Virus genome (UHGV): UHGV-0102869
Strand: one strand, 5' to 3'
DNA from: a virus
DNA: 12,701 bases
In this document: one piece after another, positions 7,390 through 8,822 of the stretch
How the letters are laid out: every line of letters starts with the position of its first letter
Numbering within the stretch: the stretch's first letter is position 1
Translations under genes and position numbers: made by a program
The notes under the pieces: model-generated
What the model was told of the DNA's origin: nothing
The model's database searches: none
What the model saw: only the letters and a program-made list of their open reading frames with translations

Positions 7390-8331
7390 ATGAGCACTAA
7401 ATTAACCGGCTATGTATGGGATGGTTGCGCTGCGTCAGGCATGAAATTATCCAGCGTGGCAATTATGGCCCGCCTGGCTGATTTCAGTAATGACGAAGGT
7501 GTGTGCTGGCCATCAATTGAAACCATTGCCCGTCAGATTGGCGCGGGGATGAGTACCGTCAGAACGGCTATCGCACGGCTGGAAGCAGAAGGCTGGTTAA
7601 CGCGTAAGGCGCGTCGCCAGGGTAACCGCAATGCGTCGAATGTTTATCAGCTTAACGTTGCGAAGCTTCAGGCAGCGGCATTTTCTCAACTGTCAGATTC
7701 TGACCCGTCAAAATCTGACGCATCAAAATCTGACCCGTCAAAATTTGATGCGTCGAAATCTGGCAAAAAAGCGGGTTTTCACCCGTCAGAATCTGGCGGG
7801 GATCCGTCAGTAAAATCAAAACATGATCCGTCAGATAAAAAACCTTCTCGTCCGGACGCTTCGCAACCGGACACGCAGACGGATGAACAGGATTTTTTAA
7901 CTCGCCATCCTGATGCGGTTGTATTCAGCCCTAAAAAGCGCCAGTGGGGAACGCAGGATGATTTGACCTGCGCACAGTGGCTCTGGAAAAAAATCATCGC
8001 CCTGTACGAGCAGGCCGCCGAATGTGACGGCGAGGTGGTTCGTCCCAAAGAACCGAACTGGACAGCCTGGGCAAACGAAATTCGCCTGATGTGTGTGCAG
8101 GATGGTCGTACTCACAAACAAATCTGCGAGATGTACAGCCGCGTCAGCCGCGATCCGTTCTGGTGCCGTAACGTGCTCAGCCCGTCGAAGCTGCGGGAAA
8201 AATGGGATGAGCTTTCCCTGCGCTTATCGCCGTCCGTCAGCACGTACACAGAAAAACGCGAAGACCCGTACTTCAAAGCCAGTTACGACAATGTGGACTA
8301 CAGCCAGATCCCGGCAGGATTCAGGGGGTGA
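7390..8331 (+). CDS. Replication initiator, lambda O-like: N-terminal helix-turn-helix domain, low-complexity linker encoded by an iteron array, and a distinct C-terminal domain; 313 aa
   Basis: N-terminal region (SVAIMARLADFSNDEGVCWPSIETIARQIGAGMSTVRTAIARLEAEGWL) resembles O-type initiator N-domains. The gene contains tandem DNA repeats followed by an A-rich stretch, as ori-lambda does inside O. Confidence 0.8.
   Translation: MSTKLTGYVWDGCAASGMKLSSVAIMARLADFSNDEGVCWPSIETIARQIGAGMSTVRTAIARLEAEGWLTRKARRQGNRNASNVYQLNVAKLQAAAFSQLSDSDPSKSDASKSDPSKFDASKSGKKAGFHPSESGGDPSVKSKHDPSDKKPSRPDASQPDTQTDEQDFLTRHPDAVVFSPKKRQWGTQDDLTCAQWLWKKIIALYEQAAECDGEVVRPKEPNWTAWANEIRLMCVQDGRTHKQICEMYSRVSRDPFWCRNVLSPSKLREKWDELSLRLSPSVSTYTEKREDPYFKASYDNVDYSQIPAGFRG
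7691..7841. repeat. Iteron array (candidate replication origin) inside the O-like gene: four tandem 15-bp units TCTGAC(C/G)C(G/A)TCAAAA at 7699-7758, three further CCGTCAGA-containing copies at 7780-7835, then an A-rich stretch
   Basis: Repeats read directly from the sequence; each unit carries a TGAC-N-GTCA partial palindrome. They encode the SDSDPSKSDASKSDPSKFDASKS linker of the initiator. Confidence 0.6.
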
Positions 8332-8333
8332 GC

Positions 8334-8822
8334 ATGAGTCTTTTGAATGACGTTCAGAAATTCATTGAAGCCCATCCGGGCTGTACTTCCGGAGACATTG
8401 CGGATGCTTTTGCAGGTTACTCACGGCAGCGCGTTCTGCAGTCAGCAAGCAAGTTACGTCAGAGTGGGCGTGTGGCTCACTGTTGTGAAGGAGATACACG
8501 CAGACATTTCCCGCGCCTGACTGAGAGAGCGCAGGAGCCGGAACCACAACCAGTTCGTGAAACCAGACCTGTGCGCAATTTCTATGTCGGCACTAACGAT
8601 CCCCGGGTGATTTTGTGCCTGACCCGCCAGGCTGAAGAACTGGAGTCAAGGGGCTTATACCGTCGTGCTGCAACGGTGTGGATGGCGGCATTCCGTGAAA
8701 GCCACTCCCAGCCAGAACGAAACAATTTTCTGGCGCGTCGTGAGCGGTGCTTACGGAAAAACAGCAAGCGCGCTGTATCGGGTGATGAGTGGTATCTGTC
8801 AGGGAATTACGTGGGGGCTTAA
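8334..8822 (+). CDS. PerC-like regulator (about 162 aa from the ATG); function uncertain
   Basis: ATG at 8334 preceded by GGGGGTG; a GTG start at 8328 is an alternative. C-terminal LESRGLYRRAATVWMAAF...RRERCL resembles the conserved PerC/Pch region as I remember it. Stop overlaps the next start as TAATG. Confidence 0.55.
   Translation: MSLLNDVQKFIEAHPGCTSGDIADAFAGYSRQRVLQSASKLRQSGRVAHCCEGDTRRHFPRLTERAQEPEPQPVRETRPVRNFYVGTNDPRVILCLTRQAEELESRGLYRRAATVWMAAFRESHSQPERNNFLARRERCLRKNSKRAVSGDEWYLSGNYVGA

Follow-up and report, generated by a model that had tools for sequence, protein, structure and literature searches.

A probable iteron origin inside the O-family initiator gene of a loader-less lambdoid prophage, and a DnaT-like tail on the initiator as a possible means of recruiting host DnaB-DnaC

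The closest described counterparts of the locus treated here are the replication modules of lambdoid phages. In phage lambda, the origin (ori-lambda) lies inside the gene of the initiator O, between the parts that code for the two domains of the protein, and P is contacted by the C-terminal domain of O; origins of the lambda type inside O-family genes are a known kind. Nor is the absence of a loader new, as O-only lambdoid modules are already in print as common and unexplained. According to a 2025 study in Genome Research (PMC12315714), 34 of 314 Enterobacterales lambdoid phages are O-only, none was studied experimentally, and their replication "is not yet understood"; LLS, a characterised plaque-forming phage with growth curves, is described there with a replication module made up of an O homolog only. 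The passages of that study consulted here mention neither iterons nor a domain analysis of the initiator nor its tail. Here, we analyzed a 12,701-nucleotide stretch of the virus genome UHGV-0102869 (the whole stretch is called the window), which makes up the early region of a prophage of the lambdoid SfII/SfIV/mEp460/CPS-53 kind. A sequence-only reading had proposed an iteron origin inside an initiator gene at 7390-8331 (313 amino acids), followed at 8334-8822 (162 amino acids) by a PerC-like gene in place of a helicase-loader gene, and had suggested that either a distinct C-terminal domain of the initiator may recruit host DnaB/DnaC directly or the module is incomplete. The coordinates of both genes are right, and the origin and the absence of a loader stand, but the distinct domain and the incomplete module do not. 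Direct recruitment of host DnaB/DnaC is plausible and gains indirect support from the DnaT-like tail of the initiator.

In our interpretation, the region is a complete, working replication module of the SfII/LLS type, in which the initiator itself delivers the host DnaB-DnaC complex through a short C-terminal tail that it shares with DnaT. We lean toward this statement as a whole, with some reserve. The part that concerns the origin and the missing loader is very probably correct; the step in which the tail would recruit DnaB-DnaC is drawn from a comparative pattern and is tentative. The module is common: prophages of about half of the E. coli sequenced to date carry it, as do serotype-converting phages of Shigella and relatives throughout Enterobacterales, and its tail bears on two questions, the loading of the host helicase by loader-less phages and the recruitment of DnaB-DnaC by DnaT at restart. 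A tail shared with DnaT makes the loader question directly testable.

Judged by its sequence, the initiator is a member of the lambda O family, with a winged-helix N-terminal domain, an origin-encoding linker, an O-type C-terminal domain and a short DnaT-like tail (Table 1), and it is 100% identical to the "O protein family protein" of SfII. Both it and lambda O have a winged-helix N-terminal domain, and both genes lie in a rightward early operon after cro and a cII-like gene. Unlike in lambda, the N-terminal domain matches HTH_36 and not the Pfam model Phage_rep_O, which has no match in the initiator; GntR, MarR and DnaD_N are weaker Pfam matches to the same domain. The C-terminal part, from about residue 170 to residue 313, is not the distinct domain it had been taken for: residues 175 to 277 align with residues 175 to 270 of lambda O (BLASTP E value, 7e-26), the two domains have the blocks WGTxxDLTxAxW, PNxxxWANxIRLM, DGRxH and NVLSPxKLRxKW in common, and tblastn finds the domain in lambda, 933W, phi80 gene 15 and SfI O (E value of 1e-17 for lambda, 933W and phi80). 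Because lambda O has been described by HHpred as HTH_36 plus Phg_2220_C (PMC5509034), the O-type C-terminal domain and the Phg_2220_C-type domain found in other initiators are probably distant homologs. Our AlphaFold2 (AF2) model of the O-type domain is good for the core only (predicted local distance difference test [pLDDT] score of 75.7); its alignment was shallow, since the homolog run gave mostly fragments (at least 48% identity) and the best 120 of the profile run were only close relatives. Rep_3, the WH1-WH2 family of iteron-plasmid Rep proteins, had no Pfam match in the initiator, in which only RP-C appeared below the threshold (17 bits against a cutoff of 24).

The putative origin lies between the two domains. 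At least seven copies of a CCGTCA(G/A)A core had been claimed, and indeed the window holds seven exact matches, all on the plus strand between 7264 and 7835 (0.94 expected; 0 of 200 shuffles reach seven). Six of them are inside the initiator gene and one, at 7264, is in the upstream gene. The true structure is more regular than this core, namely a dyad array with a 15-bp period, which Tandem Repeats Finder reports as 4.3 copies of 15 nucleotides at 7699-7762. Dyad units GTCARAWTYTGAY (at most one mismatch) start at 7692, 7707, 7722, 7737 and 7785 and a degenerate unit starts at 7752, giving start-to-start spacings of 15, 15, 15, 15 and 33 bp; GTCAGAtTCTGAC, the first of these units, is perfectly palindromic. 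A search that tolerated one mismatch placed the dyad at the array positions and nowhere else in the window (0.40 expected). Three core copies (7264, 7530 and 7556) are not part of the array; those at 7530 and 7556 fall in the part coding for the winged helix and are not conserved in LLS, and we do not count the three as origin elements. The array can also be read in the register TCTGAC-CC-GTCARA (in degenerate form, TCTGAC-SS-RTCARA), and one dimer might recognise either dyad. As in lambda, the order is N-terminal DNA-binding domain, dyad-symmetric iterons, A-rich stretch and C-terminal domain; unlike in lambda, which has four iterons of about 19 bp, there are six of 13 bp.

The spacer before the sixth iteron carries an A-tract and a T-tract that are kept in LLS, the Klebsiella phage and phiNP. 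It overlaps a weak terminator-like hairpin on the minus strand, CGGGTGAAAACCCG followed by T6 (7785-7772, between iterons 5 and 6), the stem of which is not conserved in the relatives, and for this reason the spacer is probably a bend element rather than a terminator. Apart from this hairpin, scanning for promoters and terminators revealed nothing that bears on the origin. The adjacent A-rich stretch, which also had been noticed from the letters, is real but moderate: at 7802-7848, a 40-bp segment has 67 to 70% A+T against a mean of 51% for the window (94th percentile), and 47.5% A on the top strand corresponds to the 99.5th percentile of the window. It is the most A-rich part of the gene. Its two repeats, spaced by 24 bp, are kept in LLS as GGATCCGTCAGTAAA and TGATCCATCAGTTAAAAAACC, and the GATC with which each begins is also present in LLS and phiP27. 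Most relatives have a DNA methyltransferase gene after that of the initiator, of varying family (Dam, N6_N4, C5, D12 or MT-A70). Origin function may have a link to methylation; since GATC is not enriched across the window (52 sites against about 50 expected), the basis of such a link would be the two conserved sites in the A-rich stretch.

A comparison with relatives points to selection on the repeats as DNA. Klebsiella phage 1 LV-2017, phiNP, YeP3, phiP27 and LLS have the same core with the same 15-, 15-, 15-, 15- and 33-bp spacing in the same place. Against these five, the amino acid identity in the N-terminal domain is 61 to 88%. In the codon comparison, it is 62 to 88% in the N-terminal domain and 56 to 81% in the iteron segment (residues 99 to 152), whereas at identical residues the same codon is used in 77 to 95% of cases in the iteron segment versus 32 to 48% in the N-terminal domain (Fisher p from 2e-3 to 2e-8 for each pair). 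Suppressed synonymous change combined with relaxed protein constraint indicates selection on the DNA itself, the signature expected of a cis-acting element. In 48 parsed loci of 80 fetched from IMG/VR, all 100% identical over the N-domain query, the number of iterons is 5 in most, 6 in two and 7 in one (polymorphism at L046, L047 and L051), always in 15-bp steps that keep the frame and add five linker residues each. SfV has a different HTH_36 initiator in the same slot, orf39 (L006, 3205-4514), which carries its own repeats GTGCAnnnnnTTCAC at 24- and 42-bp spacing in the same relative place. Covariation of initiator and iterons has long been known among lambdoid phages, and the orf39 repeats are an instance of it. 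The proposed ori-lambda-like layout is therefore supported by the domain order, by selection at the DNA level and by the repeats of SfV orf39; that the repeats are the replication origin is inferred by analogy with ori-lambda.

The module without a loader is not a damaged one. Among the 20 open reading frames of the window that were scanned, none matched the P, DnaC/IstB or DnaB families, and the annotation of the complete SfII genome includes no helicase, primase or loader. An O homolog is thus the only replication gene; propagation of phages with such a module is known from the LLS literature and from isolation records of SfII, SfIV and the PhiR phages, the window's own element being known from sequence. 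Over segment 6400-9500, the window shares 97 to 98% identity with PhiR29_1, SfII, SfIV, Kati and other isolated phages, and the initiator plus the next gene is matched in 2,732 of 5,426 complete E. coli genomes. With the same module in SfII, SfIV, PhiR29_1 and Kati, with the loader-less LLS forming plaques and with the same situation in most relatives, the idea of an incomplete module is refuted. For the census of these relatives, one genome per species was taken, which yielded 80 loci, 73 of them with an intact initiator bearing this N-terminal domain, and 4.5 kb downstream was inspected. No P, DnaC or DnaB gene follows in 65 of the 73; the other eight have P (two loci), a DnaC-like gene (five) or DnaC plus DnaB (one). 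Large unassigned downstream frames proved in a Pfam check to encode C5, D12 and MT-A70 methyltransferases, an antirepressor, a ParB-HTH protein and a DUF1133 (Q-like) protein. Some loci come from assemblies titled Vagococcus, Chryseobacterium, Martelella and Pseudomonas lundensis (L104, L126, L131 and L163), for which contamination or mislabelling is likely.

The nearest O-only system is that of LLS, whose initiator is 75% identical to that of the window over residues 1 to 180, that is, N-terminal domain plus iterons. The two share a single-gene module without helicase or loader, a left operon with YfdP-, YfdQ- and YfdR-like genes and no recombination (Rec) module, and abundant Chi sites; they differ in the C-terminal domain, which is of the Phg_2220_C type in LLS and of the lambda O type in the window, and in the PerC gene, which LLS lacks. 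The O-type domain, in turn, is found with different partners: a true lambda P homolog follows the initiators of P0097 (48% identity) and Hafnia phage Meifeng (45%), and a DnaC paralog 48% identical to E. coli DnaC follows those of P0042 and P0129 (60 to 65%). The window initiator and the DnaC-associated relatives have a 10-residue insertion (ECDGEVVRPK) that is absent from the P-associated O proteins, lambda's included. In phiP27, the same N-terminal domain and iterons are joined to a third kind of C terminus, with DnaC-like and DnaB-like genes. Since the same domains occur with P, with a DnaC paralog or with the third C terminus of phiP27, the origin-binding half and the partner-contacting half are, as judged from these sequences, shuffled independently. 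The Eru classification of Shiga toxin (Stx) phages, in which Eru1 to Eru3 have helicases and some later types have HTH_36 proteins, includes no analysis of iterons or loaders (PMC8044961, PMC8951638).

What the window initiator has in place of the lambda end, ...DWIYGVDL, is an end like that of a host protein. Its last residues, ...SQIPAGFRG, agree with the end of host DnaT, ...SQIPPGFRG, in eight of nine positions (the E. coli DnaT C terminus reads ...SEPDSQIPPGFRG, in a longer stretch ...VNTVSEPDSQIPPGFRG), and both proteins would bring DnaB-DnaC to single-stranded DNA (ssDNA) away from oriC. Beyond the last 22 or so residues there is no similarity: in an hhalign comparison of the O-type alignment with DnaT, only these align (E value, 1e-4), and the N-terminal oligomerisation domain and three-helix ssDNA-binding C-terminal domain of DnaT are absent from the initiator by hhalign, with no PDB sequence match to DnaT. 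The initiator is also unlike DnaT in that it would recognise DNA by sequence and not by fork structure. In the AF2 model, most of the last 30 residues fall below a pLDDT of 50, as would suit a flexible tail. Of the 73 census initiators, 47 terminate in the motif [IV]-P-x-G-F-R-[GS], on O-type and Phg_2220_C-type domains alike, and all four Gly and all six Arg codons are used for it; this synonymous variety argues for selection on the protein rather than on a ribosome-binding site that the genes share.

When the last 39 residues of DnaT were searched by tblastn against all phage genomes, 47 records were found, of which three represent the DnaT of Salmonella; the other 44 are from phages, and in each of them the match is the extreme C terminus of a replication initiator (among them Gifsy-1, Gifsy-2, Rac, POCJ13, SPN1S and mEp460_ev081). 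Host dnaT lies immediately upstream of dnaC, and the tail-bearing initiators of Gifsy-2, POCJ13, Rac and the P0129 type (P0042 also) likewise have a DnaC paralog as the next gene. In Rac, this is YdaV, directly downstream of the DUF1376 protein YdaU, which ends ...SAIPPGFRG and matches DnaT over about 80 residues in a profile comparison (E value, 9e-9). Rac YdaU-YdaV, Gifsy-2 gpO-DnaC and POCJ13 thus resemble the window in the DnaT-type tail, and the P0129 type also in its O-type domain (65% identity), but these elements have their own DnaC paralog directly downstream, whereas the window phage has none. K-12 YdaU proved to lack the O-type domain, and the tail alone is common to YdaU and the window initiator. 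SPN1S (L184), an epsilon15-like and unrelated podovirus, has an initiator that shares 64% identity with DnaT over the final 39 residues; the 2.7 kb beyond its gene carry no annotated loader gene, so that SPN1S is another loader-less case, outside the lambdoids. The recurring database label "primosomal protein I" for phage initiators follows from the shared tail and is misleading, as it does not reflect membership in the DnaT family. We have not found the DnaT-type tail on loader-less initiators described in the literature and regard it as a lead.

SfV orf39 ends in a tail of the window type; its last 24 residues are identical to those of the window initiator, and the PerC gene follows it as well, which places a mosaic junction immediately before the tail. 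Phage cdtI and Stx2c phages are 82% identical to the window initiator over its last 33 residues. The DnaT-type tail is missing from the initiators paired with P, namely those of lambda (...TNTDWIYGVDL), Hafnia phage Meifeng (...HWNSKESWEDFI), L137 and L165. These P-paired O proteins (L010 for lambda, L007 for Hafnia, L137 and L165; four sequences only) have a tail of their own with two Trp residues, for example DLTNTDWIYGVDL and HWNSKESWEDFI, and this separate pattern suggests that the extreme C terminus, and not the globular domain alone, would specify the partner. In the census, 64 of 66 initiators with either a GFR-type tail or a second, IWKE-type tail lack a loader gene, versus six of seven with other tails that have one. 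The IWKE-type tail is found with either type of C-terminal domain, mainly in Yersinia, Providencia, Proteus, Buttiauxella and Rahnella (among others, L107, L113, L130, L143 and L148; also YeP3, L004).

These observations can be put together in a model. By analogy with ori-lambda, the six iterons would be occupied by initiator dimers in a bent nucleoprotein complex, with the A/T tracts and the 15-bp phasing contributing to the bend; the complex may then open the adjacent A-rich stretch, aided by rightward transcription through the gene, as in lambda. Comparative inference supplies the next step: the phage, having no P, DnaC or DnaB of its own, would have its initiator hand over host DnaB-DnaC, and delivery would proceed through the flexible tail ...SQIPAGFRG, a copy of the C-terminal tail of DnaT. 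DnaT, as an adaptor that brings DnaB-DnaC to restart sites, is the model for this role, and the tail would dock a DnaC-type loader, that is, the phage paralog where one is present and host DnaB-DnaC where there is none. The PerC-like gene would be an optional regulator outside the replication machinery. In its general form, the proposal is more doubtful still than the recruitment step itself: [IV]-P-x-G-F-R-[GS]-COOH might be a portable DnaB-DnaC docking signal of DnaT and of unrelated enterobacterial phage initiators, loader-less lambdoids might replicate by DnaT mimicry, and the last 10 to 20 residues of O-family initiators might specify the loader. Should this hold, the peptide would also supply the missing link in the transfer of DnaB-DnaC from DnaT to restart sites, and the last residues of the O-family initiators, instead of the globular C-terminal domain, would set whether P, a phage DnaC or host DnaC is used.

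Several points weigh against this model. The IWKE-type tail, ...(I/V)W(K/Q)(E/Q)xxxQ...AA (IWKExxQ...AA), is found at 19 loader-less census loci, so the DnaT-type tail is not the sole solution. Other phage DnaC paralogs adjoin initiators with unrelated tails, and the paralogs beside tail-bearing initiators proved not to be distinctly nearer to host DnaC (48 to 52% against 45% identity). For DnaT residues 154 to 179, the only published activity that we found is an aid to cooperative ssDNA binding (PMC4132743), and the authors of a 2026 preprimosome structure propose that DnaB-DnaC is recruited by the N-terminal domain of DnaT, not by its tail, and describe the mechanism as unknown (PMC13377028). 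The census detected loaders by phmmer with few seed proteins and by Pfam spot checks, and its prophages are phylogenetically related and some may be defective. As to the origin, the A-rich stretch is only moderately AT-rich, and iteron binding by the initiator as well as origin activity are predictions.

The chief rival makes use of the same tail, which could plug the initiator into the PriA-PriB restart primosome or add ssDNA binding, an opened origin, R-loop or D-loop then being taken over by host restart, which loads DnaB. The cooperative ssDNA binding reported for DnaT residues 154 to 179 (PMC4132743) and the action of DnaT within a PriA/PriB/DnaT complex (PMC13377028) fit this idea, and it would suit a RecBCD-Chi-dependent phage with 8 Chi sites against 0.41 expected, no Rec module and an LLS-like left operon. 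However, the tail-bearing initiators of Rac, Gifsy-2, POCJ13 and the P0129 type are paired with a DnaC paralog and not with PriA or PriB homologs, which points to the loader as the partner of the tail, and in the electron cryomicroscopy model, it is the acidic linker of DnaT that touches PriB and its C-terminal domain that touches PriA, the text making no mention of the tail (PMC13377028). We consider restart an unlikely route, yet one to be kept in mind. Loading by way of host DnaA, which would recruit DnaB-DnaC as in iteron plasmids, appears improbable. The window resembles pSC101 (RepA), R6K (pi) and RK2 (TrfA) in having one initiator of its own, tandem iterons and no loader, and presumably in relying on host DnaB-DnaC, and these single-initiator replicons use DnaA; it is unlike them in that it has no Rep_3 match and no DnaA boxes by the iterons, that the origin is inside the gene and that the repeats are short dyads and not direct repeats of about 22 bp. 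A YfdR-like gene in the left operon and four near-consensus DnaA boxes at 4057-4494 would agree with a part for DnaA, YfdR of CPS-53 being a ligand of DnaA Phe46. Against this stand the report of YfdR as an inhibitor of the DnaA-DnaB contact (PMC4776307), the lack of any TTWTNCACA box in the window and the distance of at least 660 bp from the iterons to the nearest sites with at most one mismatch, inside the CII-like gene.

The remaining alternatives are weaker. That the repeats merely encode a low-complexity Ser/Asp/Lys/Pro linker and have no role in cis, the origin being elsewhere, has in its favor that the segment translates as SDSDPSKSDASKSDPSKFDASKSGK, which has the appearance of a disordered linker; set against the codon conservation above that of the flanking structured domain in spite of a less conserved protein, the perfect or near-perfect dyads with conserved spacing, the position as in ori-lambda and the SfV initiator with its own, different repeats, it is quite improbable. 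Even less credit is due to the proposal that the PerC-like product is a new adaptor in place of P. Its gene begins 2 nucleotides after the initiator stop codon, start/stop coupled like P to O, follows the unrelated SfV orf39 as well and recurs in about a quarter of the census loci, but the product matches Pfam PerC, has no similarity to lambda P and no ATPase motif, and LLS, phiNP, Klebsiella phage 1 LV-2017 and most of the loader-less census loci lack the gene. Least probable of all, and already contradicted, is the idea of a defective module, a remnant from which the loader gene was lost. Close relatives by C-terminal domain do exist with and without a DnaC-like gene (L011 versus L012), and CPS-53 of E. 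coli K-12 carries a decayed copy of the module (a protein label reads "CPS-53 (KpLE1) prophage protein"). Nevertheless, the layout is identical in isolated, propagating phages, the reading frame of the initiator is intact in 78 of 80 IMG/VR copies, and 65 of 73 species-level relatives share the arrangement.

That the next gene codes for a PerC-like protein and not for a loader was borne out by profile search. Residues 98 to 151 match Pfam PerC (PF06069; E value, 4.5e-9; 36.9 bits against a gathering cutoff of 22.6), the product also matches PHROG "transcriptional activator" families, and its AF2 model has a winged helix (residues 1 to 60), a disordered linker and three helices (the PerC domain). 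No loader family, be it lambda P (PF06992) or DnaC/IstB (PF01695), matches in sequence or fold, nor was a PDB sequence match found. A role in transcription regulation is probable for the product, which is no helicase loader, and the gene is an optional and not an obligatory part of the module, as a methyltransferase gene directly follows the initiator in LLS, phiNP and Klebsiella phage 1 LV-2017.

TABLE 1 Features of the window (positions counted from its first nucleotide)
Feature	Position	Strand	Basis or remark
Replication initiator gene, 313 aa (amino acids)	7390 (ATG)-8331 (TGA)	+	PHROG phrog_391 "replication initiation O-like," E 1e-135
Conserved N-terminal domain, aa 1-100	7390-7689	+	
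Winged-helix (HTH_36) domain, predicted origin-binding, aa 23-70	7456-7599	+	Pfam PF13730, E 4e-11
Five tandem iterons, 15-bp period: 13-bp dyad GTCARAWTYTGAC + 2-bp spacer	7692-7764	.	Repeat search, Tandem Repeats Finder
Spacer A6...T4, AAAAAAGCGGGTTTTCACCC	7765-7784	.	20 bp; sets 33-bp step to sixth iteron
Sixth iteron, GTCAGAATCTGGC	7785-7797	.	In all relatives as CCCGTCAGAATCTGG
A-rich stretch, candidate DNA-unwinding element	7801-7848	.	Composition percentiles
Two repeats GATCCGTCAG(W)(W)AAA, 24 bp apart, each starting with a Dam site	7801-7815, 7825-7839		
Lambda-O-type C-terminal domain, aa 175-277	7912-8220	+	
Flexible C-terminal tail, ...NVDYSQIPAGFRG-COOH	8290-8328	+	Motif [IV]-P-x-G-F-R-[GS]
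YfdN-like PerC-family gene, 162 aa	8334 (ATG)-8822 (TAA)	+	2 nucleotides past initiator stop; start/stop-coupled
Integrase, excisionase, small open reading frames		-	
YfdR-like HD phosphohydrolase gene	2098-2661	-	
YfdQ (DUF2303) gene	2762-3586	-	
YfdP-like gene	3652-4332	-	
CI-type repressor gene	5485-6159	-	
CII/CP76-like gene	6482-7045	+	Pfam, PHROG; same rightward operon as initiator
DUF4222 gene	7042-7380	+	Label via RefSeq annotation of matching E. coli loci
Dam-type N6-adenine methyltransferase gene	8819-9475	+	Pfam PF05869, E 1e-45
LexA-DNA-binding-domain protein, RusA, KilA-N, DUF968/HNH, Q	After Dam	+	Pfam/PHROG
Chi sites	1932, 6692, 8845, 9201(-), 10097, 11246, 11517, 11646(-)		

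The surroundings of the module are those of a lambdoid early region, and the order CII/CP76-like gene, DUF4222 gene, initiator gene is also found in SfII and LLS. An Rfam scan of the window gave no match. YfdR of CPS-53 binds DnaA at Phe46 and competes with DnaB and DiaA (PMC4776307), from which we conclude that an early phage function of the YfdR-like kind may release host DnaB-DnaC from oriC. DnaA-box-like 9-mers with at most one mismatch to TTATCCACA lie at 4057, 4275, 4392 and 4494, within 440 bp at the start of the leftward operon; in the whole window there are nine such sites against about 2.7 expected, none of them near the iterons. No Rec module was found in the left operon, which has the YfdP-, YfdQ- and YfdR-like genes instead, and six of the eight Chi sites (GCTGGTGG) are on the plus strand. 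The abundance of Chi together with the lack of a Rec module agrees with the Chi-rich, RecBCD-aided class of LLS, the growth of which is helped by RecBCD according to the 2025 paper (PMC12315714).

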